In this document: positions 1,262-38,033 of the stretch, in pieces
How the letters are laid out: every line of letters begins with the position of its first letter
Position numbering within the stretch: position 1 is the first letter of the stretch
The notes under the pieces: generated by a model
The model's input: the letters and a program-made list of their open reading frames with translations, nothing else
What the model was told of the DNA's origin: nothing
Database searches by the model: none
Made by a program: the position numbers and the translations under genes
DNA from: Scenedesmus sp. PABB004
Lineage: Eukaryota
Length of the DNA: 64,000 nt
Direction of reading: 5' to 3'
Assembly: GCA_014905635.1 (NCBI GenBank)
Contig: JABVCE010000008.1
Span: 496,001 to 560,000, forward strand

Positions 1262-3291
1262 TCACAGGAAGTAGTCGGGCGCGGCGCGCTTGGACTGCGC
1301 GCCGCGCGCCTCCTGCGGCGCCGCCTCAAACACCTGCGCAGCGGGGCGACGGCGGCCGCGCGCTCAGGGAGGGGTGGGCTCGTGCCGCGAACGCGCGCAC
1401 GCGGAGCGCCCGCGCCAGCGCGCCGCGCCTTGAAGTTCTTGCTGAGGTGCTCGTCCAGCTCCAGGATGGCCGCGATGTTCCCGCACCTGCGCGCGCCGGC
1501 CAGCCCCGCGCGCGTGAGCGCCGACCGACAGCGAACGCGCGCTCGCACTACGCCGCCGGCATGCGCCCGCGCGGCGCCGCGCGCGCGCCGCGCTGCTCGC
1601 CTGTAGCAGTAGTTTGGCGCGCTCCACACGGTCACGAGCGCGTCGTGGAACATCCACTTGTAGCCGTCCATGACGAGCTGGTGCGCGCGGGCGATCATGG
1701 TGATCTTGTTCGCCGCCGCAAAGCTGCCCGCGACGTCGCCGCCAAACAGGTACCCCGCGCCGCGCGGCGAGAGGCCCCAGCCCTCGATGTCCTCCGGGTC
1801 GGACCAGAGCAGGTCGCACATCGCGCCGTCGTGCGGGACCTCCTGCTTGCGGTCGATCGTGCGGATCTGCGGCGCCGCGCGGGGTGCGGGGGAGCGAGGG
1901 AGCGGGCCTCGGCGGCGGGCCGAGCCGCGGCGGCGGGCGCGCACGCGGCGCCGTGGGGCGGTCGTTGCGTGCGCGGCGCGCGCCTGGTCGAGCGTGTTGA
2001 TGGTCGGCGAGAGGCCGCCGTGCACGCAGAAGATCTGGTTGTCAATCACAGCCGACAGACTGCCGGGTCGGGGCGGGGCGGGGCGGGGGCGTCGGACGCC
2101 CGCCCGCTCCCGTGCAGGGCCGCGCCGCGGCGCAGGGGCGCGCTGCGTGCAGTGCGCTGCGCGCGCCTGAGGTAGTCAAAGACGTCGGTGCAGTAGCGCC
2201 ACACGTTGACCGAGCCGTACTTGCGCAGGCACTCGTCGTAGAAGCCATAAACCTGCGCGCGCAGACGGCGGCGAGGCGGGGTCGGGACGGGCCGCGGGCG
2301 GCGGGCCGGGCGGCGCGCCGGGCGGCGCGCCGGGCGGCGCGCCGGGCGGCGCGCCGGGGCGGTGGCGCGCGCCCCCGCTGCCGCGGCGGGCGCGGCCGCG
2401 CCTGCGTGATCTGCCGGCTCTCGTGGTTGCCGCGTATCAAAGTGATGCGGTCCGGGTAGCGCACCTGCGCGCGAATGCAGGGCCGCGGCGGCGTCGGCCG
2501 CCGCGCGCCGCAGCACACCTCTGCGCCCCGCCGCTGTGCCCCCGCCGCGCCGCAGCTCGCTGCCGCCGCCGCCGCCGCGCCTTGAGCGCGAGCAGCAGCA
2601 GGAACGTCTCCACGCTGTAGAAGCCGCGGTCCACAAAGTCGCCCATGAACAGGTAGTTGGTCTGCGGGCAGTCGCCGCCGACCTGCGCGCAGCGGCAGCA
2701 CGCACGGCACGTGCGGCGCGGGCAGGCGGGCGGTGAGCGCGGCGGCGGTCGGGAGGGCGCGCGCGTGCGCGCGTCCTGCAAGCGCGTCCTGCAAGCGCGT
2801 CCTGCAAGCGCGTCCTGCAAAGCGCGGCGCGCCTGGAAGAGCTCCATGAGGTCATAAAACTGGCCGTGGATGTCGCCGCCTGCGCGCGGCGGGGCGCGGC
2901 GCACGGCGGCGCGCGCGAGCGCCGGGTCGGGCGCGGGCGCGGGCGGCGCGGCGCGCATGCGCGCGCGCGCGGCGCGCCTGCCGCGGCCGCTGCTCGCTGC
3001 CCGCGGCGCCCCCGCCGCTGCTCGCGCCGCCGCTGCTCGCGCCGCCGCTGCTCGCGACGCCGCTGCTCGCGCCGCCGCTCGCGCCGCCGCCGCCCCCTGC
3101 CCGTCCCCAGGGGTGAGGCGCTCCCCCGCCCACTCACACACGGTGACGGGCGCGTCGACGCGCTGCACGTTGCTCTCCTCGACCAGCACCTCGAGCGCCT
3201 TTTGGCACAGCGACTTGACCTCGTTCTCCTTGAGCGGCTCGCAGCGCTTGAGCTGCTCTATCCACCGGTCCAGCTCGCTCTGGCCCGCCAT
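1262..3291 (-). CDS. PPP4C: Serine/threonine protein phosphatase PP4 (PPX) catalytic subunit, 9 exons
   Basis: [20 protein letters not shown]...[10 protein letters not shown]...[14 protein letters not shown]...[25 protein letters not shown]...[21 protein letters not shown]...[11 protein letters not shown], with C-terminal PDYFL. Eight introns, seven with GC donors. Confidence 0.95.
2769..2820. repeat. 4 x 13-bp tandem repeat GCGCGTCCTGCAA in PP4 intron 2
   Basis: Four consecutive exact copies read directly. Confidence 0.9.
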
Positions 3292-3704: not shown

Positions 3705-5114
3705 ATGCTGCAGGCGCGCCTGCCCCAGACCGCCGCGCGGGCGGGCGCCCGCCCCGCCGCGCCGGCGCTGCCCGGCGCCGGCGCGGCGGCCGCGCGCTGC
3801 GGCTGCTCCGTCGGCGCCGCCCGCCCCGCGGGCCGCCAGCAGGCGCGCGTGGTGTGCCAAGCAGGTGCGGCCGGCGCGGCGATGCGGGCCGGAATTCGGC
3901 GGCCGCGGCGCGCTGCGCGGGCGGCGGAGGCGCGCCGCGATGCCGGGCGGCCGGGCAGCGCGTCCCGGCATTGGCGGGGCGGCCAATGAGTGGCCGGCGC
4001 GCGCGCGCCGCCGCGGCGGCCGCTGCTGTGGCCGCCGGCGCCCGCCGCCGACGCGCCGCGCCGCCGCGCGCCCGCAGCTGCCGCGGTGGAGGAGGCCGCC
4101 CCCGCGGCGGCGCCGGCGCGGCCGTCGCTGCACAGCATGGCGCCGCCCGAGACGTACGCGATCGTGGAGGTCGGCGGCAAGCAGATGTTTGTCGAGCCGG
4201 GCAAGTGGTACACCTGCAACCGGCTCCAGGTGTGTGCGTGTGTGCGCGCAGCGTGGCGGCGCTGGAGCCAGAGGGCGCCGGAGGCGCACGCGGCGGGCGC
4301 CGGCGGCCTGCCAGCCGGCCTGGCGAGCGAGGAGCGACGGCAGGCGCTGCGGCCGGCGCCGCGCTCAGCCCGTGCGGGCAGCGCCGCCGGCAGAAATGGC
4401 AGCAGCGCTCGGCCCGTGCGGGCAGCGCCGCCGGCAGAAATGGCAGCAGCGCTCGGCTCGTGCGGGCAGCGCCGCCGGCAAAAATGGCAGCAGCGCTGCT
4501 GCCATTTCTGCCGTCGCCGCTGCCTGCACGAGCCGAGCGGCAGCAGGAGCAGCAGCAGCAGCCCGCAGCAGCAGCAGCAGCCGCAGGAGCAGCAGCAGCA
4601 GCAGGAACAGCAGCGGCCACGGGCGCGGCGCGCCGGCAGCAGCGGCCCCGGCGCAGCGCGCCGGGCCGCACGACGGCCACCCAGCTCGCCCGCGCCCCGC
4701 CGCCCCGCCCGCCCGCGCGCCAGGTCGCGGTCGGCGACAAGATCCGTCTGGGCCGCGTGCTGGCGCTGAAGCAGGGCGACAGCTTCACCGTGGGCAAGCC
4801 CTACCTCGAGGGCGTCACGGTCGAGGCGGAGGTGCTGGAGGAGCTGCGCGGCCCCAAGGTGCGCGGCGCGGCGCGGCGCGGCGCGTACCCTCGCCCGGAC
4901 GCCACGAACGCCGCGGCGCGCGCCCGCGCTCGGCGCGCCGCCGCGCTCGGCGCGCCGCCGGGCGGCTGCCCGCTGCTGCTGACCGCCGCCGCGGCGCGCG
5001 CCTGGCGCCGTGCAGATCATCGTGTACAAGATGAAGCCGAAGAAGCACTACCGCCGCAAGAACGGGCACAGGCAGGAGCTCACCAAGTTCATGGTGACAA
5101 AGGTCGCCGCCTGA
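3705..5114 (+). CDS. RPL21: Plastid 50S ribosomal protein bL21 with transit peptide, 4 exons
   Basis: Ala/Arg-rich N-terminus ending VVCQA, then [70 protein letters not shown] at 5112-5114. Confidence 0.95.
4363..4538. repeat. 44-bp unit: three direct copies plus one abutting inverted copy (intronic)
   Basis: Copies at 4363-4406, 4407-4450 and 4451-4494. 4495-4538 is the reverse complement of copy 3 at 40/44 positions. Confidence 0.9.
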
Positions 5115-10975: not shown

Positions 10976-11665
10976 TCAGGTGCTGATGGCCTTGACGCGG
11001 TAGCGCGCCATGGTCGCGTCCGGCGCCGCGACGCCCGCGGGCGTGCGCGGCGCGACGCCCTCAAACAGCGTGTCCAGCAGCTCGACCTCCACCGCGGCGT
11101 CCGGGACGTAGGGCTTGCCCCAGCGGAAGCCGCCGTCCAGGGAGTGCACGCCGAGTACGCTGTGGATGCAGATGCGCGTGCCGCCGCTGCTGCCGCCGTC
11201 GGCGGCGCTCGCGCTCGCGCCACCGTCGCCGGTGGGCGCGCAGGCGCCGCCGCTGCGCTGGAGCAGCGCGAGGCGGGCCGTGTACTCGTGGCCGACCTCG
11301 AGCATCTGTCGCAGCCCCCCGAGCTGCACGATGGCGTAGCTCGGGGCGGCCGACGCGCCGCGCGCCGCCGTGTGTGGCTGCGCCAGCGCAGCCGCCGTGG
11401 CGCCGCCGCTGCTGCGCAGCGGCTGCGGCGCGGTCCGGCGGGACGGGGCGCGGCCGCCTGCGGCGGAGGCGGGCGCGGGCCGTTCAGGCGGCGCGGAAAG
11501 AGGCGGCTGCGGCGCGTGTGCGTGGAGCAGCGGCGGCGCCTGCTGCCGGCGCCCGGCCGGCGTGCCGTGGGCCCCGCGCGCTCTCCCGACGCGCTGCTTA
11601 AGCCGGTGATCACGCCCAGCCGCACCTTGCGGGGCCGCGCGCGTCCGCGAGAGCGCGGCGGCCAT
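10976..11665 (-). CDS. Divergent intronless bL21-like protein with putative organellar transit peptide
   Basis: YAIVQLGGLRQMLEVGHEY and VLGVHSLDGGFRWGKPYVPDAAVEVELLD align by eye with bL21 at 3705-5114. The basic [14 protein letters not shown] loop is absent. ATG at 11665. Confidence 0.7.
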   Translation of the reverse strand: MAAALSRTRAAPQGAAGRDHRLKQRVGRARGAHGTPAGRRQQAPPLLHAHAPQPPLSAPPERPAPASAAGGRAPSRRTAPQPLRSSGGATAAALAQPHTAARGASAAPSYAIVQLGGLRQMLEVGHEYTARLALLQRSGGACAPTGDGGASASAADGGSSGGTRICIHSVLGVHSLDGGFRWGKPYVPDAAVEVELLDTLFEGVAPRTPAGVAAPDATMARYRVKAIST

Positions 11666-12164: not shown

Positions 12165-14272
12165 ATGGTGAAGAAGGCCAAGGGAAAGCACCGGCTGGAC
12201 AAGTTTTACCACCTCGCCAAGGAGCAGGGGTGAGCGGCAGCGGCGGCCGGCGGCAGCGGGGCTGGCGCGCGCGGCGCGCGGCGCCCGAGCCCGAGCCCGC
12301 GGCCGCGCGCCGCCCGCCCGCAGCTACCGCTCGCGCGCGGCGTTCAAGCTCATCCAGCTGAACCGCAAGCACAACTTCCTGGCCAACTGCAAGGCGCTGC
12401 TGGACCTATGCGCCGCGCCAGGCGCGGCCGCGGGCGGCGGCGGCCGGGGGGCGCGGCGAGGGCGCGCAGGGCGCCGCCGCGGCCGCGCGCGCGCGCGGCG
12501 CCGCCGCCCAGCGCCCGGCGCGCCGCGTGCCCCGCCCCGCAGGCGGGTGGATGCAGGTCGCGGCCAAGAGCATGCCGCTCGGCAGCCTCATCATCGGCGT
12601 GGACCTCATGCCCATCAAACCCATCCGCGGCACCAAGTGTGGTTCAGCGCGCTGAACCGCAGCGCGCGCCCCCGCCGCCGGCGCTGCGAGCGCCGGCAGC
12701 TGCTGCCGCTGCTGCCGTCGCTGGCGCTGGCGCCGCCGCCGCGGCCGGCCCACCCCGCCGGTGGTCGCTCCGCCTCCGTCGCCCGCCAGGTCGTTCATCA
12801 GCGATATCACGAGCCAGCAGTGCCGCCAGCTGCTTAAGCGCGAGGCGGGCGGCAGCATGTTTGACGTCGTCGTCCACGACGGCGCGCCCAACGTCGGCGG
12901 CGCGTGGAGCAGCGAGGCGTACACCCAGAGCGCGCTCGTCGTCGACGCGCTCGCGCTCGCGGTCGAGTTCCTCGCCCCCGGCGGCACCTTTGTCACCAAG
13001 GCGCGCACCACCAGCACCCGCCACCCGCCACCCGCCGCCGCCGCGCGCTGCGCTGCGGAACAGCTGCGGAACAACAGCGCTGCGCGGCGCGGCGCGGCGC
13101 CGCCGCCGGCCCGGCCGCTGGCAGCAGCCCAGCACCACCCGCCGCCCGCCTCGACCCCGCTCGCCTCGCGCCGCCGCCGCTTCCTAAACCCAAACCCTGG
13201 CCCCAGGTCTTCCGGTCCAAGGACTACAACGCGCTGCTCTACGCCTTTGGGCAGCTCTTTGCCAAGGTCGACGCGACCAAGCCGGCGGCGAGCCGCAACG
13301 CGTCGGCCGAGATCTTTGTGGTCTGCCTCGGCTACAAGGCGCCCGCCAAGGTCGACCCGCGCCTGCTCGACCCCAAGCACCTCTTCGCCGAGGTCGCAGA
13401 GGCGCCCAAGGTGCGGCGGGGGCTTGGCCGAGGACGCGCCGGCGCGCGGCGCGGCGCGTGTGGCGTGCGGCGCGCGCTGGGCAGGGGGACGGCGCGCGGG
13501 CGCGGCGCGCCGGCCGAGGCCGCCGCCGCCGCCGCCACCGCCGCCGCGGTCGGCGCCGCCGCGCAGATCATGGGCCCCGAGGCGCTGCTCAAGGCCAAGA
13601 TCAAGCAGAAGCGCCACAGGGAGGGCTACGAGGAGGGCCTCTCCTCGTCGCACAAGGCGCTGCCGGCGACCGCCTTCCTGCTCTCGGACGACCCAGTGGG
13701 CATGCTCGGCGCGGCGACGCAGCTCGTGCTCGCGGGCGCGGGCGCCGAGGCGCCCGTCGCGCAGGGTGCGCGCCGGCGGCGCGGCGCGGCGCGGCGGCGG
13801 CCGCCGGCGGACCGGGTGGCGCGGGAGGTGCGGTGCGCGCCCTGAGTGCCGCCGCGCGCGCCCGCACGCGCGGCCCGCAGGCGGCGAGGGCGAGGGCGAC
13901 GACGCCGAGGCGCTGGACTGGGCGGCGCTGGCGGCGGGCATCCGCGACCACGCCGCCACCGACGGCGAGGTCACGGCGCTGTGCAAGGACCTGCAGGTGC
14001 GGCGCCGGGGCGGAGCAGGGGGCGGGGCGGGGCGGGGCCGCGCCGCGCCGTGCCGTGCCGCGCCGGGCCGGGCCGCGCCGCGCGCCACCCGACCGCGCGC
14101 CGCCCGGCCGCGCGCCCCGCCAGGTGCTGGGTCGCTCCGAGTTCAAGCAGCTCCTGCGCTGGCGCCTCACGCTGCGCAAGGCGCTCAAGCCGCTGCTCGG
14201 CGGCGCGGGCGGCGAGGACGGCGGGCCGCGCGGCAGCCACAAGAAGGCGCGCCCCGCCGCGGACGGCGGCGA

Positions 14273-14314
<42 letters not shown>

Positions 14315-15051
14315 CGCCGACCCCGAGGCGCGGCTGCTGGCAGAGATGTCGTCGATCAAGGACGCGGCGGAGCAGCGGTGCGCGCCGCACTGCGCACGTC
14401 CTGCGTGTGCCGCGCGGCGGCCGGGCGCCGCACGCCCGGCCGCGCGGCGCGGAATGCGGCGTGGGATGCCGCGTGCCTCACGCCCTGCCTGCACGCCCCG
14501 CCGCGCGCGCCGCCCGGATCAGGCTGCGTCGTGAGAAGCGCAAGCGGCGCGAGCTCAAGAAAAAGGCCAAGGTCCGCGCCGCGCAGCTGCTGCAGGCCGA
14601 GGGCGGCGAGGACGGCAACGCCGCCGCGCCGGACGAGGAGCAGCTGTTCAGCCTCGACGCGCTCACGCCGGGCGAGGGCGCGCCGCGCGGCGCCGCGCGG
14701 CGCGCGGCCGCCGCGGCGCTGCGCCGCGTCGTGAGCGCGGCCGCGCCGGGCGCGGAGGAGCTCGAGGCGCTGGAGGAGGAGGAGGACGACATGGAGGTGA
14801 GCCGGTTGCTGCCGCCGCGCGGCGCGGGCCGGCCAGGCGTCGGGCCGGCGGCCTGCTTGCGCGCTCGCCCGGCCGCCACGCCACCGACGCGCCGCTGCCG
14901 CCGCCGCCGCCGCGCCAGTCGCTGTCGAGCGACGAAAGCGACGCGAGCAGCCTGGACAGCGAGGAGGAGGCGCTGGACTACGAGGCCCAGCTCGAGGAGG
15001 CGCTGGAGGACTCTTACCAGCAGTACCTCGAGCGCAAGGGTGCGCCGCCGC

Positions 15052-15147
<96 letters not shown>

Positions 15148-17106
15148 TGCTGCCGCTGCTGTCGCCCCAACTGCTGCCTCCGCCACCTGGCGCGCGGCGC
15201 TCGGCGCTGCTGGCAAGCGTGCGCGGCGCGCCCACAGCCGCCCCCGCCCTGCCGCCGCGCCGCCGCCGCCGCCGCCGCGGCCCCGGGCGCGCAGGCGTGC
15301 GCGACGCGGTGCTGAAGGAGAAGCGGCGCCGCCTGGGCAAGGGCGGCGAGCTGGGCAGCGACGACGACGAGGACGGCGCCGCGCCCGCGCCGGGCGGCGC
15401 GTCGTCGGGCGAGGAGGAGGAGGAGCAGGACGGCCAGGTGCGGGCGGCGGCGGCGGCGTCTCACGGCGCAGCAGCGCTCCGCGCGCGCGCAGCCGCGCGC
15501 CGCCCGCGCCGCCGTCGCACGCCGACCCGCCGTGTGCCACGCCGCGCCGCGGCGCCCCCAGGCGGCGTACGCCGCCAAGCTGCGCGAGCTGGCGGAGGAG
15601 AGCGAGGACGACGTCGCCGCGGCGGCGGGCGGCGGCCTGCTGGTGCGCCTGGACGAGAGCCGCGCGGGCGTGGCCAAGGGCGGCGCTGCAGCGGCAGCGC
15701 AGTGGTTTGGCCAGGACCTGTTTGACGACCCCAACGTCGAGGCGAGTAGCGACGAGGACGAGGACGCGCCGGCGGCGCCGGCGGCGCCGGCGGCGCCGGC
15801 GGCCAAGCGCGCACGCCGCGGCGACGCCGCGCCGGCGCCCACGCCGGCGAGCGGCGGCAGCGACGGCAGCAGCGACGAGGAGCAGGAGGAGGAGGACGAC
15901 GACGGCGCTGCGGCGGCGCAGCCGGCGGCCAAGAAGCGCAAGGCTGGCGCAGCCGGCGGCGCGGGCGCCGCGGGCGCCGCGGCGCCGGGCGGCTACGACA
16001 GCGGCAGCGACAGCGGCGGCAGCGGCAGCGGCGGCGGCGGCGGCAGCAGCAGCGATGGCGACAGCGACGCCGAGGAGTTTGATGCGCTCGACGACGCGGG
16101 CAAGGCGGAGGTGCTGGCGCTGGCCAAGCGCATGCTGCGGCGCAAGGACAAGGAGTCCATCCTGGACGCGGCTTACAACCGGTGCGCCGCCGCGCGCACG
16201 CTGCGCGCGCTGGGTGGCGCGCGCGCGCGCGCGCGCTCGGCGGCGGCGGGCCGGGAGAGGTGGGGGCGCGCGCCGCTTGCATGCGCTGAGCGCCATCCGC
16301 CCTGCGCCGCCCCGCCGCCCCGCCGCCCCGCCGCCGCAGGTACGCCTTCCACGACGACCGACTGCCGCGCTGGTTTGCCGAGGACGAGCGGCGCCACATG
16401 CGCCCCATCCCGCAGGTCCGCGGCGCGCCCGGCTGCGCGGCGCTCGGCCGCCCGCTGGGCCGAGGGCCCGCGCCCCGCACGCCCCCCCCCCCCCTCTTCT
16501 TCCTGTGCTCTCACGGTCTCACGATTCCACACTCATCTCACAATCTCGCGCGTCGCCCGCCAGGTCAGCAAGGCGGAGGTGGAGGAGGAGAAGGCGCGGC
16601 TCGCGGCCATCGACGCGCGGCCGATCAAAAAGGTCGCGGAGGCCAAGGCCCGCAAGCACAAGCGCATGCAGGCGCGGCGCCGCACGCACCCGGGCCGCCG
16701 CCGCCGGTCGCGCTTGGGCCGCCGCCGCCGCGCGCGTGCCCTCACCGCCGCCCCGCGCCGCGCCGCCCCGCGCGCGCTTCGCCCCGCCCCGCCGCAGGCG
16801 CGCCTCGACGCGGCGCGCGCCAAGGCGACGTCGGTGGCGGCGCAGGAGGACGTGCCGATGGCGAGCAAGATGCGGGAGATTGAAAAGATCTACTCCAAGG
16901 CGCGCGCCGCCAACGGCGTCAAGGGCGCCAAGGGCGGCAAGGGCGCCAAGGGCAAGGGCGGCAAGGGCGGCAAGGGCAAGGGCCCGCCGCTCGACAAGCG
17001 CATGCGCGCCGATAAGCGCGGCATGCTCAAGGCGGCGCGGCGCGCGGGCGGCAAAAAGGGCCGCGGCGGCGGCGGCAAGCGCGGCGGCAAGGGCGGGCGG
17101 CGCTGA
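12165..17106 (+). CDS. SPB1: rRNA 2'-O-methyltransferase SPB1/FTSJ3, about 15 exons
   Basis: [37 protein letters not shown]...[14 protein letters not shown]...[11 protein letters not shown]...VFRSKDY...[16 protein letters not shown], and C-terminal [14 protein letters not shown]...[10 protein letters not shown]. Confidence 0.95.
15057..15146. repeat. (GCC)n microsatellite, about 30 units, in an SPB1 intron
   Basis: Direct reading. Confidence 0.9.
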
Positions 17107-17405: not shown

Positions 17406-20400
17406 TCAGTCGCGCGCCAGCTCCGGGGGGGTGCTGACGCCCGGGCTGGCTGGCGCGCCACGGCTGCGCCGCTTGCGACCGCGCCCTCCCCCTGCCTCGA
17501 CCACGGGCGCCGCGGCCGGCAGCGCCAGCAGCGAGCCCGCGGCCACCAGCGCCTCCTCGTCGCCCTGGCCGGCGCCGCGCTGCGCACGCTGCCGGCCGCC
17601 GCCACGAGCGCGCTGCGCCTGCTGCGCCTGCTGCGCCTCCCTGAGCAGCGCGCTGAACTTGCCCAGCGTCACGCCGCCGTGCCCCGCCAGCCGGATCTCG
17701 CGCGTGGCGTCGTGCTTGTGGCCCTGGCCGCCGTGCTTCATGAACGCAGTCTTGTTGAGCCACACCTCTGCCGCCTGCTCGCCAGCCGGCGCATCGCCCG
17801 GTGCCTCGCCCGGCGCCTCGCCCGGCGGCTGCGCGCCGCCGTGCAGCAGCAGGACGTCGCCCCTGGCGGGATCAAACATGCCCCGCGCGGTGCCCACCAC
17901 CACCAGCACGCGCCGCCCGCTGCTGCGCGCGCACTCGGCGGCCAGCGCCGCGGCGTCTGCGCCGCCGCCGCTGCCTGCTGCCTGGCGCGCCTTGCCAGAG
18001 GGGGCGGCGGCGCGCGCGCTCTCGCTGCTGGTGGCTGTCGCAGCCGCGGGCTCCTCTGCGGCCGTCGGTGGCGACAGGGGCGCTGCAACCAGCCTGGCGC
18101 GCTTGGGCATTGGCACCTCGGCCGTCGCCGCGGCTGCCGGCTCCTCGGCTGTGAGCGCTGCAGCCGACTCCGGAGCTGCAGGCGCTGCGACCAGCTCTGC
18201 TGCTGCAGGGGCTGCGCCCGGCAGCGCCAGCAGCGAGCTCGCGGCCACCAGCGCCTCCTCGTCGTTGTCCCCGCCGCGCGCCGCAGCGGCTGCCGCCAGC
18301 GCGTCCAGAGCTGGTGCGCCGCCGCCAGCTGCGCTCTGGCCCTGGCCGGCGCCGCGCGGCGCACGCTGCCGGCCGCCGCCACGAGCGCGCTGCGCCTGCT
18401 GCGCCTGCTGCGCCTGCTGCGCCTCCCTGAGCAGCGCGCTGAACTTGCCCAGCGTCACGCCGCCGTGCCCCGCCAGCCGGATCTCGCGCGCGGCGTCGTG
18501 CTTGTGGCCCTGGCCGCCGTGCTTCATGAACGCAGTCTTGTTGAGCCACACCTCTGCCGCCCGCTCGCCGGCCCGCGCCTCTCCCGGCGCCTCGCCCGGT
18601 GGCTGCGCGCCGGCAGGCAGCAGCAGGACGTCGCCCCTGGCGGGATCAAACATGCCCCGCGCGGTGCCCAACACCACCAGCACGCGCCGCCCGCTGCGCG
18701 CGCACTCTGCGGCCAGCGCCGCGGCGTCTGCGCCGCCGCCGCTGCCTGCTGCCTGGCGCGCCTTGCCAGAGGCGGCAGCGGCGCGCGCGCTCTCGCTGCT
18801 GGTGGCTGTCGCAGCCGCGGGCTCCTCTGCGGCCGCCGGCGGCGACAGGGGCGCTGCAGCGGCCAGCCTGGCGCGCTTGGCCACCGGCCCCTCGGCCGCC
18901 GCGGCTGCCGCCTCCTCGGCTGTGAGCGCTAGCTCCATGGCTGCGGGGGCTGCGCCCTGCTCCTTGGTTGCCTTGGGCGCCACCGTCAGCACCGCTGCTG
19001 GCTCCTTGGGCGCGGGCGCTGCCGCCGGCTCCGCCGCGGCCACTGACGGCGGCTCCGCCGCGGCCACCGCCGGCGGCTCCGCCGCTGCTGCCGGCGGCTC
19101 TGCCGCTGCCGCCGCCGGCGGCTCTGCCGCTGCCGCTGCCGGCGGCTCTGCCGCCGCCGCTGCAGCCGCAAGCTTGCGCTTGGCGGCACGCGGCGCCGCG
19201 AGCGCCTCCTTGGGCGGCGCGGGGGCGGCGGCCGCCGTGCCGCGCGCGCCCCCGGCGCCGGCGCCCCTGGTGGCGCGCGCGCCCGCCGCACGCGGCTGCG
19301 CTGCGGCCGCGGCCGCCTGTCGCTCGCGCCGCTGGGCCTCGGTCTGCGCGGCCGCGTCCGCCGCCTTGGCGCCGCGCATGCCTCGGCCGTACGTGCTCAG
19401 GTCCTCCTTGGCCCGCGGCGCGGCCGCCTGGCGCGCCGCCGCGATGAGCTCCGCACACTCGGCCACGCCCGCGACGCGGCTCAGCGGCAGCTCCCACGGC
19501 GGCGGGCACGCCGCCGCGCCGGCGCCCGCGAGCCGCTCCTCGCGCGCCTGCAGCAGCGCCAGCTCCCCCTTGCCGCGCGCGAGGAGCGCGTTGAGCGCCG
19601 CCGCGGTGAGGCCGCCACGCGCGCCGCTGGCGGCGCCGGCGCTGGCTGGTTCGCTGCCGCTGGCCCCGCCGCCGCCGGCGGGCTCCTTGCCCTCGAGGAT
19701 GGCCAGCAGGTACTGCCGGCGCACCTCGGCCGAGGTCGTGCCGTCAAAGAAGCCGCCTGGCCGCGGCGCGGCGCGGCGCGTGAGCTGGCGGGCGCGCGGC
19801 GCGGCGGGCGCTGGCGCGCACGGCCGCGCGGCAGGCGCACCCGTGATGCTGCTGTCGGCGAACTTTCGCTTCTGCTGCGCGACAGCGAGCACGTGCTCCT
19901 CAATGCTCGACTCGACCAGCAGGCGCACGACCAGCACGTCGCGCTGCTGCCCGATGCGGTGCGCGCGCGCCTGCGCCTGCGCGGCGCGGCGCGGCGGCGG
20001 AGGGCGGGCTCGTCGGGTCAGCGCGGGCGCGCCCGCACGCCCGCGCGCACGTTGCCGCTGCCGCAGCCATCCAGCTCGCCTGCAGATCAATCTGTGGGTT
20101 CCCTGCGGGCCGAGGGGCGGACGGGGCGGGGCGGCGGTCAGCATCACGACGCGTCGCCGGTGCGTTGCGGCGGCGGCGGCAGCAGGCGCGGCGCGGCGGC
20201 GCCGCACAGTCGCTGTCGAGCATGACGACCGTGTCGGCGGCCTGCAGGTTAAGGCCCACGCCGCCGGCGCGGAGGCTCAGCATGAACATGAACACGCCCG
20301 AGGCTGCCGGCGGCGGGCGAGCGGGTGCAGTGAGTGCGTGCTTGGTGGAGACAGAGGCTGAGCGCGGGCGGTCGTGGAGCGGCATGCGGCAGCCAGCGGG

Positions 20401-20997
20401 CGGCGGCCGGCCGCGCAGCGCGCACCGGGGTCGTTGAAGCGCGACACCGCCTCGGCGCGCTCCGGGCCGCTCGTGGCGCCGTCGAGGCGCAGCCAGGTCC
20501 AGCCGCGCCAGGCCGCGTACTCCTCTACCAGGTCGAGCGCGCGCGTCATCGTGCAGAAGAGCAGCACCTTGTGCCCGCACGCCGCGAGCCGCACCAGCAC
20601 CTGCGCGCGCGGCGCGGCGCGGCGCGGCGGCTGCACGTGGCGCGGCAGGCGCGCTGACGGCTGGCAGCGCACAGCGTGCGGCGGCCGGCACCTGGTCGAG
20701 CAAGTCCAGCTTGGCCGAGAGCCGCAGCACCGCGGGCAGCTTGGCGGGCCCCGCCGCGCCGTCGCCGCCGCTGCCGCCGCCGGCATCGAGCAGCAGGTCC
20801 TCCCCAAACTCGGGGTGCAGCTTGCTGCGCGGCGGGGCGCGCGGGCGGCGCGGCGCAGTCTGCGCCGCCGCGGCGCGCGGCGCGCGGCGCGCGCGCGGCG
20901 CGCCCGAGCCTCGCCGCGCGCCGCGGCCGTGCCTCAGGGCCGGGTGGTTGCAGATGTTGCGCAGCTCCATCACCGTGTTGTTCACGCCCCGCGCGCC

Positions 20998-21029
<32 letters not shown>

Positions 21030-24000
21030 GCGCGCCGCCGTCGCGGAACTTGGTGCGCACCAGGTCATACAGCGCGGCCTGGTAGGGCGAGATTGGCACG
21101 CGCAGCACCACCTCGCGCTGCGGGCGCGGCGCGGCGTGCAGGTGGCGGCGGCCGTCGGCGCGCGCGTGCGTCGCGCGGGCCGTGCGCGCGAGCGAGGCCG
21201 GCCGCTGCCGCTTGGAGGGGCGGAGGGGCGGGCGGCGGCGCGGGGGCGTTCGACCTTGGGCGGCAGCTCGGTCGCGACGGCCTCCTTGAGCCGGCGCAGC
21301 ATGAAGGGCCGCAGCACCGCGTGCAGCCGCCCCGAGACGAGCAGATACTCCTCCTGGCTCAGCAGGTCCGCCTCCGCGGACGACCCAGCGACCGCGGCCG
21401 CCGCCGCGCCGCCGGCGTCCCTGCGCGCACGCGCGCCAGCGAGCGCGCAGGGCGCTCGGCGCGCGCGCCGGCGGCGCGCGGGGCGGCCGACGCGGGCGCG
21501 CCGGCGGCGCCGCACCTGATCGCCTGCAGCGGCGCGCCGAACCAGGCGTCAAAGTCGTCGGCGCTGCTGAAGACCTCGGGCATGAGAAAGTTGAGCAGGC
21601 TCCACAGCTCGGCCAGCTTGTTCTGCAGCGGCGTGCCCGTGAGCAGCAGGCGGCTGGTGCTGGTGTAACCGCGCAGCTCCTGCGCGAGCTTGCACTCGGC
21701 GTTCTTGAGCCTGCGCGCCACGGCCGCGGCGGCGGCGCCGCGTGGGCCGGCGGCGCGCGGTCGGCGGCGGCGCGGCAGCATCAACGCCCGCCCTCAACCC
21801 CCGCCATGAGCACCTGTGCCCCTCGTCGACCACGATGCCGGCCCACTTGATGCGCACGAGGCGCGCGCGGTCGGCCGGCGCCATGAGCAGCTCATACGTT
21901 GTGAGCACCACGTCCACGCGCCGCCCCGCCACCTGCGCAGCACGGGCGCGGCGGCGGCGGCGGCGGCGGCGGCGTTCACAGTGAGGCGCCAGCCCGTGCG
22001 CGCAGCCGTTCGCCCGGCCGCGGCTGGCGAGCGGCCGGGCGGCGGCGCCGCCGCGCCCGGGCCTCGCCGGCGCGGCGCACCTGGCGCGCCCAGACCTCGC
22101 CGCGCGCCTCGGCGCTGCCCTTGTACTGCACCACGGCCAGCCCCGGCGCCCAGCGCGCGCACTCGGCTGCCCAGTTGCTGAGCACGGACGCGGGGCAGAC
22201 CACCAGGAAGGGCGGCGACGCGCGCGCGCCCGGCGGCCGCGCCTCGACGCAGTGGCACACCAGCGCGATGACCTGGCGGCGGCGGGCGGCGGGGCGAGTG
22301 AGCGCGCGCGCGCACGCGAGCCGGCCCGCAGCCGACGAGGCGGGCGCGCCGCGTGCTGCCGGCGCACCTGCACCGTCTTGCCCAGGCCCATGTCGTCCGC
22401 CAGAATGCCGTTGAGCCCGCGCTGCGACAGGCCCACCAGCCAGCACAGGCCCTGCGCGCGCGGCGCGGCGCCGTGGGTGGGCCCCGGCGCGGCGCGGCCC
22501 CCAATGCTGCGGACGAGCAGCGCGGCGCGGACGACGCAGCGCGGCGCGCCGCGCCTGCATCTGGTAGTCTCGCAGCTGCCCGCCCGTGAGCATGGCCGGC
22601 TGCGCCGGCACGTCCGCCGGCAGCTGCGCGGCGAGCCGGCCCCACGCGGCGGTGGCGTCCAGCACGCCCGCGCCGCCGCCATCGAGCGCGCCTGCGGGCG
22701 CACGAGCGTGGTGACGCGGCGCGATCCGGCGGGCCCGTGGCCTTGCGGCGGCGCGCCGGCGCGCCGCCGCGCACCCGCGGCGTCCGGGGCGTCCATGCCC
22801 AGCTTGGCGGCGAGCTGGCGCAGGCAGTCATCAGTCTGCCGCAGCACCTCGGCCAGGCGGCTGTTCTTGGCCTCGGCGAGCAGGGCCAGATACTCGCCCA
22901 TGCTCGCGCCGCGCAGCGCCGCGACGCGCGCCGCCGCGGCCGCCTCGCGCCGGCGCTGCGCCTCGGCCGCCTCGCGCTGCGGCGCGGGCGGCCGGGCGGC
23001 CGGCGCGCGCGCGTCGGCGCGGGCGGCGCGCGCGGGCGGCAAGGCAGCGGCCGCGGCGCGGCGGCGGCGCGGCGGGCGCCGCGCACACCTTGTGCCACTC
23101 GCGCACGGCCGCGTTGCGCGTGGCGCGCGCCGCCGCCAGCGCGTGCCGCGCCTGCAGGACCTGCGCGGGCCGGCGCGCGCACGTTGTTTGAGCCGCAGCG
23201 GCATGCAGGACGGCGCTTCGCGCCCGCGGCGCGCCCGCCCGCGCCCGCGCGCCTGCGGGCCGCGGCGCTCGGCTTCCGCCGCCAGGCCGCGCATGGCCGC
23301 GCGCAGGCGCGCGCGCTCGCCGGCGCCCTCCTCGCCGGCGGCGGCCGCCTCGACCTCCACCGCCACGTCGTCCGCGCCCGTGTGCGCCAGCGCCAGGCGC
23401 TCGCGCGCCGCGCGCTGGTGGGGCGCCAGCTTGAGCTGCTTGATGCGCAGCAGCTGCTGCAGCGCCAGCGCGTGCGCGGCGGCGTCGCCCCCGCCGGCGG
23501 CGCCGCGCGCTGCGATGGCCGCCTGGGTTGCCTGCAGGTGCCTGCGCGGCACGTCAGCGGCGCGCGTCAGCAGGGGTGGCGTGCGATCCCCGCGCCTGGA
23601 CCCCCGCCTCACCGCCTCATCGCCACCAGCGCCTCGGTAGCCGCCCCGCCACAGGCACCGCCGCTGGGCGCGTCGGCAACCGCCGCGCTGCAGCGGCCCA
23701 GCCGCGCCTGCACGAGCGCGGGCGGCTCCGCGGCGCCCGGAGGCGCGCCAGCTGCGCGGCGCGCAAGGATATCGCCGCCATCGCTGGTGCGCTCGCGCCA
23801 GCTGCTGCCGTCGCCGTCAGGCTTTGCCGCCGCGTGTGCAGCCGCCGCGACCGCGGCTGCCGCCGCGGTCGGCGGCGGCGCCGGGCCGCTGCACGGCGCG
23901 GAGGCCTCTGCCACCGCCGTTGGCGCCGCCGACAGCTGCAGGTCCAGCTCGCTGGGCCCGGCCGCCTGCGCCGCCGGCGCCACCTGCGCCAGCAGCCATC

Positions 24001-24392
24001 TGCGCGCAGCGTGCGGCGGCGGGCCGAGTTTGCTTGCGCGCAGGTGCGGAGGTGCCGGCGCGCAGCGCACCTGAGCAGCTCGTCCGGCGTGGGCAGCCCC
24101 GGCACGCGGCAGACGGCGCTGCCGCCGGCGGCGTCCCAGCCGCCGTGACAGTGCGCGAGCGCCTGCGCGCGGCGCCCTCACGCGGCGGTTGGCGCAAGCG
24201 CGGCCGGCAGCGCGCGGGCGGCGGCCGCGCTCCCAGGGAGCCACTCACGGTCTCCAGGTGGGGCCTCAGCGCGGCGGACGTGCGGGCGATGCCCGCGGCG
24301 CGCAGAGCGCTGCGCAAGTCGAGCAGCAGCGCCGCGCCCGCGCCGGCGCAGCCGGGCGGCAGGCGCGGAGGCTGCGGGGCGACCGCCTCCAT
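17406..24392 (-). CDS. SNF2/BRM-type chromatin-remodelling ATPase with duplicated C-terminal SAND-like domains, about 19 exons
   Basis: Post-HSA-like [22 protein letters not shown]. Helicase motifs [89 protein letters not shown] and GGFFD. ATG at 24392 is inferred. Confidence 0.9.
17518..18930 (-). repeat. Recent in-frame tandem duplication (about 0.65-0.7 kb units, offset about 780 bp) in the SNF2 last exon
   Basis: About 17518-18160 and about 18220-18930 are near-identical at DNA level. Both encode [20 protein letters not shown]. Confidence 0.9.
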
Positions 24393-35529: not shown

Positions 35530-38033
35530 TCACAGCAGCGTCTGCCTGCTGCTGCCAGGCAGCCAGCCGCCGAGCTGCTGCTCGTCGCCGGCGTCGCCGG
35601 CGGCCGCCGCGGCGGGCGCCGCGCCGCCGCGCTGCCGCCGCGGCGCGCCGGCCGCCACGTCGCCGCGCGTGCCGAGGAGCTCAGCCTCGAAGGTCTGACT
35701 AAATCCGGTCGCGATGATCGTGACCTGCGAGCGCGCGGCGGCCGTGGGGTGTCGGGCTCGCAGGGCACACGGCGGGCGCGCACAGCGCGCCGGGCACAGC
35801 GCGGCGCGGCGGCGCGCGCCCGGCCGCCCCGCCAGTGCGCGCTGAGCGGGGCGCGCCTGGACGTCGTCGGGCGGGCAGCTCTCGTCGACGACGGCGCCGA
35901 AGATGATGTTGGAGCTCGGGTCGCCCGCGAGGCCGGTGACGACCTCCGAGATCGTGTTGACCTCGGCGAGCGTGAGGTTGGCGGGGCCTGCGCCGCGCGC
36001 CGCGGCCGTCGGCGCGCGCTCGCGCTCTGCAGCCAGACGCGGCGGGCGCAGCAGCTGTGCGGCGGCGCGGGCGGGCAGGGCGGTGCGGCGGCGCGCCTGT
36101 GATGTTGAAGACGATGCCGGTCGCGCGCTCGATCGTGGACTGGATGAGCGGCGCGTTGGTCGCGCCGTACGCCGCCTGGCCGCGCAGCGTTGTGTTGCCG
36201 GTTGGTGGGCGGCGGCGGCGGCGGCAGGCCCCGCTGTGTGAGGCAGAAGGCGGCGTGCCGGCGGCGCCGCGCGCCGCACGCGCCGCGCGTGCCGCGCGCG
36301 GGCGCGCGCCTGCAGCGCGCGGTCGGGGCCGGAGCCGTAGCCGACGCCGAGCATGGCGGTGCCGCTGTTGCGCATGACCGCCTTGATGTCTGAACGCCGC
36401 CGCGGCCGGGGGCGGGGGCCGGAGGCGGGTCGTCCGCACGCCCCGGGGCCACGCCCGCGCCGCGCGCGCGCGCGCGGCGGTGGCGCGCGAGCGCTTGTGG
36501 CGCGGGCGCGGGCGTGGTCCGCAGGCGGCGCGCGCCGCCGGCGCACCCGCAAAGTCCACGTTGATGAGGCCGGGGATGGTGATCATGTCGCTGATGCCGC
36601 CCACGCCCTGGCGGGCACGGCGCGACGAGCGGCGCGACGCGGCGCGTGTGGGCGCATGCGCGTGGGCGGGCGAGCGCGGCGGCGCCGCCCGGCCGGCCCC
36701 CTGGGCCCAGCGCGCCTGGCGCAGCACGGTGTCGGCGAGGGCAAAGGCGTCGGTGAGGCTCGTGGAGGTGCCGGACACGGCGTCGAGCAGCTTGTCGTTG
36801 GGGATGACGATCAGCGTGTCGACGTTGCTGCGTGTGCGTGCGTGAATGCGCGCGTTTGAATTGGTTTGAGCGCCGCGACGCGGCGAGACGGCGCGTGAGC
36901 AGCCAGCCGGCGCCGCTGCCAGGGCGCGCGCGCTGCCCGGCGACGCGGCGCGGCGCGGCGCGCCCACCGGCGCAGCGTCTCGATGCCCTCCACCGCCTGG
37001 CCCGCGCGGCGGCGGCCCTCAAAGCTGAAGGGGTAGGTCACGACGCCCTGGGCAGCAGGGGGCGGCAGGGGCGCGGCGGAGGGTCGGGGCCGCCGCACGG
37101 CCGCCGCGCGCGCAGCGCGCGCCGCGCCCACGCCCACGCCCTCGCCGCCGCCCCGGGCGCGCGCGCGCGACCGCGCCGCTCCCCGCGCGCACCACGGTGA
37201 GGATGCCCGCGTCCTTGGCGAGGCGCGCGATGACAGGCGCGGCGCCCGTGCCGGTGCCGCCGCCCATGCCGGCCGTCACGAACAGCATGTCGGCGCCCGC
37301 CGCGACGCCCGCGAGCTCGGCCGCGCTCTCCTGCGCCGCCTGCTCGCCGAGCGCGGGCTTGCCGCCCGTGCCGAGGCCGCGCGTGAGCGCGGTGCCGATC
37401 TGGAGCTTGTTGGGGCAGATGTTGGCGTCGAGGGACTGCTTGTCGGTGTTGACCGCCCAAAACTCGACGTTCTGCAGCCCCGTCGCGATCATGCGCGCGA
37501 TGGCGTTGCCGCCGCCGCCGCCGCAGCCGACGACCTTGATGAGCGCGTGGCCGTTGCGGTTGGCCTCCGCCTGCGCGAGGTACGCGGCCGCCGCGGCCGC
37601 CGAGATGGCCGACGCGCCGGCCGGCGCCGGCGGCGCGCCGGCGACGTCGGCCGGCGGCGCCGCGGGCGCGGGCGCGGGCGCCGCCGCGAGCGGCTCCTCC
37701 TCGCGCGGCGCGAGCTCCTCGCCGTCGCCGCCGCCCCCGTGCACCATGCGGCAGAGCACCGACAGGCTGCGCTTGAGCGCGACCGGCAGGCCGCCGCCGG
37801 GTGGCGCGGCGCAGAGGCAGGGGCGCGCGGTGCGCTGCCGCACGGAGCTGTGCGCCGCGGGGTGCCGGGCGCCGCCGGCGCTCAGGGAGCGGGAGGCCTG
37901 CGGGGAGGGGGCAGCCATCAGGTCGGGGAGCAGCCATCAGGCCGCCATGGCACGGCAGCGGCGGGGCGGTTGGCGGCGCTCCGCTGCTGCGGGCGACCGG
38001 CGCGCGCCACGCCCGCAGAGCCCCCACCTGCAT
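35530..38033 (-). CDS. FTSZ1: Plastid division protein FtsZ (FtsZ1-type), 9 exons
   Basis: [64 protein letters not shown] and VTIIATGF. No FtsZ2-type C-terminal core motif seen. Confidence 0.92.

Follow-up and report, generated by a model that had tools for sequence, protein, structure and literature searches.

How far can a nuclear gene depend on GC donors, and is such dependence a peculiarity of one gene or a property of the whole genome? GC-AG introns average 1.2% over 121 plant and algal genomes (PMC6310983). A sequence-only reading of the PP4 locus of Scenedesmus sp. PABB004 nevertheless proposed that seven of its eight introns start with GC, that such introns form a major class in this DNA and that the spliceosome may be adapted to extreme GC content. 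The window, i.e. the whole stretch of 64,000 nucleotides analysed, has a GC content of 75-84% in each 2 kb bin and belongs to an assembly (G000) of 40 Mb in 80 contigs. The gene is composed as follows (window positions; a slash marks the exon-intron border):

1262..3291, minus strand: PP4 (PPX) catalytic subunit gene, 9 exons, 924 nt, 307 aa
3291-3138, 2879-2833, 2682-2581, 2464-2402, 2252-2167, minus strand: PP4 exons 1-5
2059-1984, 1866-1601, 1486-1429, 1333-1262, minus strand: PP4 exons 6-9
2880..3137, minus strand: intron 1, GT-AG, donor GT/GTGAGT, phase 1, 258 nt
2683..2832, minus strand: intron 2, GC-AG, donor CAG/GCGCGC, phase 0
2465..2580, minus strand: intron 3, GC-AG, donor AAG/GCGCGG, phase 0; a GT intron at that position in locus L012
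2253..2401, minus strand: intron 4, GC-AG, donor CAG/GCGCGG, phase 0; a GT intron at that position in L078, GC introns in two G000 paralogues
2060..2166, minus strand: intron 5, GC-AG, donor CAG/GCGCGC, phase 2
1867..1983, minus strand: intron 6, GC-AG, donor CAG/GCGCGC, phase 0; position common to the PP6 paralogue, where it is GC too
1487..1600, minus strand: intron 7, GC-AG, donor CAG/GCGAGC, phase 2; the PP2A-like paralogue has CG/GT there
1334..1428, minus strand: intron 8, GC-AG, donor AAG/GCGCGG, phase 0

Splicing at GC sites was inferred from protein conservation, using a profile-to-genome aligner written for this work, which contains no splice-context model, requires AG at the acceptor and leaves the donor dinucleotide free at no cost. 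The free-donor alignment chose one GT and seven GC donors (573.8 bits), the same eight that had been proposed, with GT at intron 1 and GC after exonic AG at introns 2-8. The resulting protein of 307 aa aligns without gaps to the green-algal orthologues P0055 (90%) and P0012 (92%). When only GT donors were allowed, the score dropped to 377.9 bits (196 bits lost) and long junk insertions were needed, in agreement with the earlier claim that the protein is restored only with GC donors. Taking one intron at a time, moving the acceptor or using any GT donor available in frame lowers the score by 15 bits or more, and the frame shifts if intron 3, 4, 5 or 8 is retained. Removal of the segments with GC at the 5´ end and AG at the 3´ end restores the reading frame, as in U2-type GC-AG introns. 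Since G000 shows a single PP4 locus, a pseudogene standing beside an intact copy is unlikely. Four of the seven GC introns occupy positions common to paralogues or distant taxa, and three of these four have a GT counterpart, which fits GT-to-GC conversion at old intron positions.

Three further conserved genes of the window contain GC-AG introns:

12165..17106, plus strand: SPB1, 14 introns; GC-AG introns at 12422-12542, 13001-13206 and 16672-16797
17406..24392, minus strand: SNF2-family gene, 18 introns; GC-AG introns at 22452-22554 and 19977-20079 by homology
23161-23252 and 20825-20932, minus strand: GC-AG introns of the SNF2-family gene by gene model only
35530..38033, minus strand: FtsZ1, 8 introns; GC-AG introns at 36608-36715, 36176-36309, 35988-36096 and 35725-35856

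GC donors thus number 3/14 in SPB1, 4/18 in the SNF2-family gene (two by homology and two by the gene model only, the model having missed one homology-based donor) and 4/8 in FtsZ, where seven introns were aligned by homology and the eighth, a GT intron, comes from the gene model. Together with PP4, this reproduces the count of 18/48 given before. The SNF2 model contains two near-identical coding-like stretches at its 3´ end (window 17654-17765 and 18440-18551), which lie about 790 nt apart and represent an internal duplication or a repeat. The closest named relatives by protein are chlorophytes: Gonium and Chlamydomonas for PP4, Monoraphidium and Tetradesmus for SPB1, and the Scenedesmus-labelled record P0121 for FtsZ.

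Homologous genes on other contigs give a similar picture. Introns were counted as confident when the score drop was at least 7 bits and they were also chosen with free donors; weaker ones were dropped. Outside the four genes, 18 of 53 confident introns have GC donors, 17 of these 18 after AG. Within the PPP family, GC donors account for 2/4 introns in PP2A, 2/7 in PP6, 2/6 in a second PP2A-like gene, 1/4 in a BSU1-like gene and 0/4 in a PP5-like gene, and for one clear and one doubtful case out of five in PP1. SNF2 paralogues have GC at 11 of 30 confident introns, and PRP8 at 11 of 32 predicted ones. With donors left free, only GT or GC was selected in 57/58 confident introns outside PP4 and in 8/8 within it. 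We put the GC share of conserved genes near one third; exons ending in AG are more frequent in them, which raises it to this level. A metagenome scan for comparable genes yielded 80 PPP-family loci, 19 of them with introns and none from an intron-rich chlorophyte, and two scans of viral contigs for such genes gave no match.

For a genome-wide estimate, a gene model was self-trained on 460 kb from 20 contigs, with three window genes as seeds and GA and GG as decoy donor classes. One probably organellar stretch of 29% GC was left out of the training set; it belongs to L142 (G000:C79), a 154 kb contig which is probably the plastid genome. Of 55 confident homology donors, among them those of the seed genes, the model found 54, and of 30 in SNF2 paralogues outside training it found 28. 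G+C makes up 95% of third codon positions in its predicted genes and 85% of intron interiors, where T stands at 7.5%. GC donors make up 218 of 930 predicted donors (23%, CI 21-26), those after exonic AG 159 of 930 (17%), and the decoys were called in 30 of 947 cases. When decoy calls are scaled by dinucleotide abundance, about 41 of 52 GC calls after non-AG ends and 10 of 158 after AG would be false, which brings the share to about 18%. The 52 non-AG calls resemble the GA and GG decoys (branch motif 0.33, G at +3/+5 0.60), and the 158 AG/GC calls resemble GT introns (branch motif 0.50 and G at +3/+5 0.87, where GT introns have 0.56 and 0.87). Among the predicted introns of the 460 kb sample there is no real GA or GG donor class, the decoy calls looking spurious.

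We put the predicted GC-AG share of the genome at 17-23%, and some GC introns may still be missed. The count of 18/48 overstates this share, and PP4 is a tail case: seven GC donors out of seven after AG have a probability of about 0.002 under the context rates. What had been called a major class is therefore a genome-wide trait, but at a lower level than in the four genes, "major" meaning about one intron in five (17-23%). The window in its entirety has GC at 32 of its 142 predicted donors. In the sample, multi-exon genes contain 5.7 introns on average, and 71 of 141 have a GC-AG intron. No gene-to-gene overdispersion of GC donors was detected in 88 genes (p 0.42), which leaves gene-specific regulation of these donors unsupported, and their use was unrelated to GC3, exon length or where in the gene the intron lies. 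A bias towards stop-producing retention is likewise unsupported (frames 53/55/51).

Several other features of the window were recorded along the way. A long CAG repeat at 85-160 codes for polyglutamine in the first gene. The gene for ribosomal protein L21 (4131-5105, plus strand, Pfam match) has an intron with a tandem repeat of about 39 nt (4370-4500), in which the gene model placed probable false exons. A second L21-like gene, recognized by eye, lies about 6 kb from it (around 11054-11338, minus strand).

The context of GC donors is distinctive. Among gene-model introns, GT donors have A at -2 in 42%, G at -1 in 86%, G at +3 in 96%, C at +4 in 67% and G at +5 in 96%; the corresponding values for GC donors are 79% (likely false calls included), 89%, 90%, 88% and 89%. 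GC donors are thus complementary to the U1 5´ end except at +2, with stronger flanks. That they follow exonic AG, as the sequence-only reading stated, holds for 25 of 26 homology-confident donors outside PP4 and for 7 of 7 in PP4. The consensus GYGCGC, read first from a few genes, reappears in the genome-wide donor logo. This logo differs from the U12-type donor consensus, which is unlike GYGCGC. U12-type introns are reported to be absent in Chlorophyta (PMC11347168).

The frequency of GC depends strongly on this context: it is 38% after AG (159/416), 51% in CAG/GYGCG (91/180) and 57% in CAG/GYGCGC (64/112). In intron interiors, which serve as a neutral reference, GCG exceeds GTG 8.6-fold and GCGCG exceeds GTGCG 12-fold. 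Measured against these odds, GC donors fall short of the neutral level by a factor of 9-16 after AG and by at least 65-fold elsewhere; T at +2 keeps an advantage over neutral of about 9-16-fold. Predicted U1 duplexes are weaker for GC donors (median -4.5 against -5.85 kcal/mol for GT donors), so the compensation is partial. Predicted exons contain 112 in-frame look-alikes of the form xAG-GCG-CG, and synonymous avoidance of GC look-alikes before CG is absent from exons (0.918 against 0.917 in the control) and so adds no independent evidence for the GC donors. The motif alone therefore does not define a donor; either intron definition sorts the look-alikes, or some of them are missed introns.

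The remaining intron signals are common to both classes. A U-rich polypyrimidine tract, already noted as missing, is absent genome-wide (6-9% T between -14 and -6), and this applies to all introns here, GT introns included; acceptors have about 54% C, G at -4 in 77% and end in GCAG. The proposed branch-like motifs CTCAC and CTGAC are enriched genome-wide 4.1-fold and 2.3-fold over shuffles, although in PP4, where they had been described, CTCAC occurs in only two of eight introns and CTGAC in none. CCGAC, enriched 1.6-fold, is commoner than either in PP4 introns; all three peak at -50 to -30, and in the genome sample CCGAC acts like a branch motif beside the other two, with CTAAC almost absent. 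Judging by their position, CTCAC, CTGAC and CCGAC are a putative branch motif, 20-50 nt upstream of the acceptor, that would pair with U2, and CCGAC at the branch site would be a T-to-C relaxation parallel to that at donor +2. The motif is found in 50% of AG/GC and 56% of AG/GT introns. The median length is 126 nt for GC and GT introns alike, and intron GC is 0.88 with GC donors against 0.86 with GT donors (p 0.08).

We then looked at the splicing machinery. G000 contains two U1 genes (L001 and L002 on C46), near-identical, inverted and 5.5 kb apart, both with a canonical 5´ end. Their first loop is a few bases off the Rfam consensus, at bases which we take to be the binding site of U1-70K. 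Two U2 genes are also inverted on C46, with U5 nearby. U6 has a canonical ACAGAGA box, and U5 loop 1 and the branch-pairing sequence of U2 are canonical as well. About 3 kb from the intact U6 gene, a copy of its 3´ half only, lacking the box (L004:1501-1557, G000:C77), is probably a pseudogene. A DNA search of the genome for further U1 copies found only the two canonical ones, and a pattern for a variant U1 with G opposite the +2 C had these same two as its only exact matches. Altered U1/U6 pairing, one of two adaptations suggested before, thus finds no support, the U1 5´ end and ACAGAGA box being canonical. The other, reliance on the exonic -2/-1 bases, gains support from the AG that precedes nearly all GC donors. 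GC donors are, however, known to be compensated in just this way, and no adapted spliceosome is needed to account for it. Genes for U1-C, LUC7 (one locus found), SNRNP27K, METTL16 and PRP8 are present. U1 snRNP is reported to bind a +2C site better than a +2A site (PMC4383343).

Taken together, these observations make it probable that we are dealing with ordinary U2-type introns, in which T at +2 has drifted to C under strong GC bias and is tolerated where the context compensates. The genome-wide G+C bias, whether mutational or due to biased gene conversion, would keep pushing the +2 T to C. A C there would be tolerated only where exonic A at -2 and G at -1, pairing with U1 and U5 loop 1, are joined by G at +3 and +5. 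With unchanged snRNAs and a preference for +2 T, a mutation-selection balance would result, in which GC reaches about 40-55% in CAG/GYGCG, stays near zero outside the permissive context and makes up about one intron in five overall. In mammals, GT-to-GC conversions accumulate (PMC3488318), and human GT>GC changes keep splicing where U1 complementarity is stronger (10.1101/479493). In green algae of 64-67% GC, the annotated GC-AG share ranges from 0.03 to 7%; the level may depend on more than composition, or the annotations may be unreliable. Also less easily reconciled with this drift are the weaker U1 duplexes of GC donors, the lack of avoidance of exonic look-alikes, the near-equal GC of introns with GC and GT donors, and the seven of seven in PP4.

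Other origins of the GC donors were weighed against this drift under GC bias. A systematic T-to-C assembly error at AGGTG contexts might be suspected in a genome so GC-rich and repetitive, but exonic AG+GYG codons for which homologues predict Val read GTG in 30 of 31 cases, whereas about 40% of such codons would have to be affected if an error were to account for the donors. Moreover, a 4 kb region with the U1-C gene, assembled twice (L143 at the end of C1 and L161 on C61; a haplotig or recent duplicate), agrees at 99.7% between its copies, and the dependence of GC on A at -2 and G at +3/+5 is a biological pattern. We therefore find such an error scarcely credible. Recent insertion of transposon-derived introners is suggested by Pelagomonas, whose introners carry GT and GC donors (10.1101/2021.10.25.465678). 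The 933 introns of the 460 kb sample, however, contain no near-identical families, the pairs listed sharing about 70-74% low-complexity identity; GC introns are not over-represented in these pairs (27/101 against 220/933), terminal inverted repeats are absent (end complementarity 5.88 against 5.80 in shuffled sequences), lengths are equal in both classes, and some PP4 GC introns sit at positions common to old paralogues, all of which renders this origin very improbable. Splicing by an unchanged core would also be explained if C-to-U editing of the pre-mRNA restored GU, or if an undetected variant U1 paired with the +2 C, and the U1 family search did score only 41 of 245 first-look candidates. 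Against this stand the two U1 searches described above and the fact that an edited site would not need an extra exonic AG. We know of no precedent for either kind of rescue of a +2 C and give this solution next to no credence.

A more serious contender is a spliceosome whose proteins (U1-C, LUC7, PRP8 or others) have changed so as to lower the importance of +2 beyond the effect of GC pressure. U1-C differs from the human protein by T11A, K22S and R28Y (gene L143:2141-2370), at positions that contact or adjoin the RNA backbone (PMC4383343). Only one LUC7 locus was found, and the GC-AG share amounts to 2-3 times the top values found among green algae. On the other hand, single alanine changes at these U1-C positions are reported to have no effect on yeast growth (PMC4383343), and the differences, which refer to a comparison with human only, may be lineage-wide. 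In PRP8, the two catalytic-core exons compared, out of 33, are near-identical to Chlamydomonas and human (1/83 and 2/71 residues differ from Chlamydomonas 8xi2_A). The snRNA motifs are canonical and T is still strongly preferred at +2. We consider such protein changes rather unlikely to be the cause. The same doubt attaches to the fuller proposal that co-adapted proteins (candidates being U1-C T11A/K22S/R28Y and the single LUC7) in this chlorophyte of about 79% GC choose donors by exonic AG and G-only contacts. If true, T would have given way to C at donor +2, +4 and +6 and at branch -2, leaving an intron code nearly free of U which would still tell AG/GCGCG donors from about as many exonic look-alikes.

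Comparison with other organisms places these introns among known cases. Like those of U2 type in plants and animals (about 1%), the GC-AG introns described here have GC at +1/+2, an AG acceptor and stronger donor flanks. They differ in making up about 17-23% of introns and touching half of multi-exon genes, and in being compensated by exonic AG and G at +3/+5 only, because +4 and +6 are mostly C. The pelagophytes Aureococcus anophagefferens and Pelagomonas calceolata have 14-17% GC-AG introns, ascribed to high genomic GC (10.1101/2024.10.30.620910); unlike this intron-rich chlorophyte, which has no introner signal, they are intron-poor stramenopiles with introner elements. Among green algae, annotation counts give 5.7% in Chlorella sorokiniana, 7.0% in Micractinium conductrix, 5.8% in Micromonas pusilla and 8.5% in Ostreococcus tauri (PMC6310983), and the share here is 2-4 times higher than in these four. 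In the same source, annotated Chlorophyceae (Volvox, Gonium, Monoraphidium) have 0.03-0.3%, Volvox itself 0.24%, and Arabidopsis 1.0% (PMC6310983).

For 5´ splice sites, two classes have been described, AG//GU, recognized through U5 loop 1, and //GURAG, recognized through the U6 ACAGA (PMC11732430). Donors of this alga resemble the scheme in that A at +4 is common only after non-AG ends (about 123/455 against about 8/257 GT donors, among the motifs listed). They depart from it in that a large part of the AG class starts with GC and C is the commonest base at +4. Donors of the GC, GA and GG types are common in dinoflagellates and in the copepod Eurytemora affinis, where they impair gene prediction (PMC12584245, PMC5714493). 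No real GA or GG class accompanies the GC donors here, in contrast to these organisms. The GC-rich haptophyte Emiliania huxleyi is said to have a majority of GC donors; if so, the level described here is not a eukaryote record.

The GC-AG introns of this alga are thus a real, genome-wide trait, of a kind known from other GC-rich algae and at a level that we have not found reported for green algae. Our literature search, in which subscription papers were thinly covered and which is no proof of absence, found no report of it in Scenedesmus-like algae. One practical consequence is apparent from the FtsZ record P0121, which is 100% identical over the FtsZ exon queried and has 572 aa with junk inserts. 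It mishandles all four FtsZ GC introns, reading through two and dropping an exon at the other two. As GC donors occur in half of the multi-exon genes, public protein models for such genomes are likely often wrong. We found no higher GC-AG share in any green alga (one comparative table, PMC6310983, gives values 2-4 times lower), and this genome offers a natural experiment on what the "invariant" U at +2 is worth in each context, the question that also lies behind the interpretation of human +2T>C variants.
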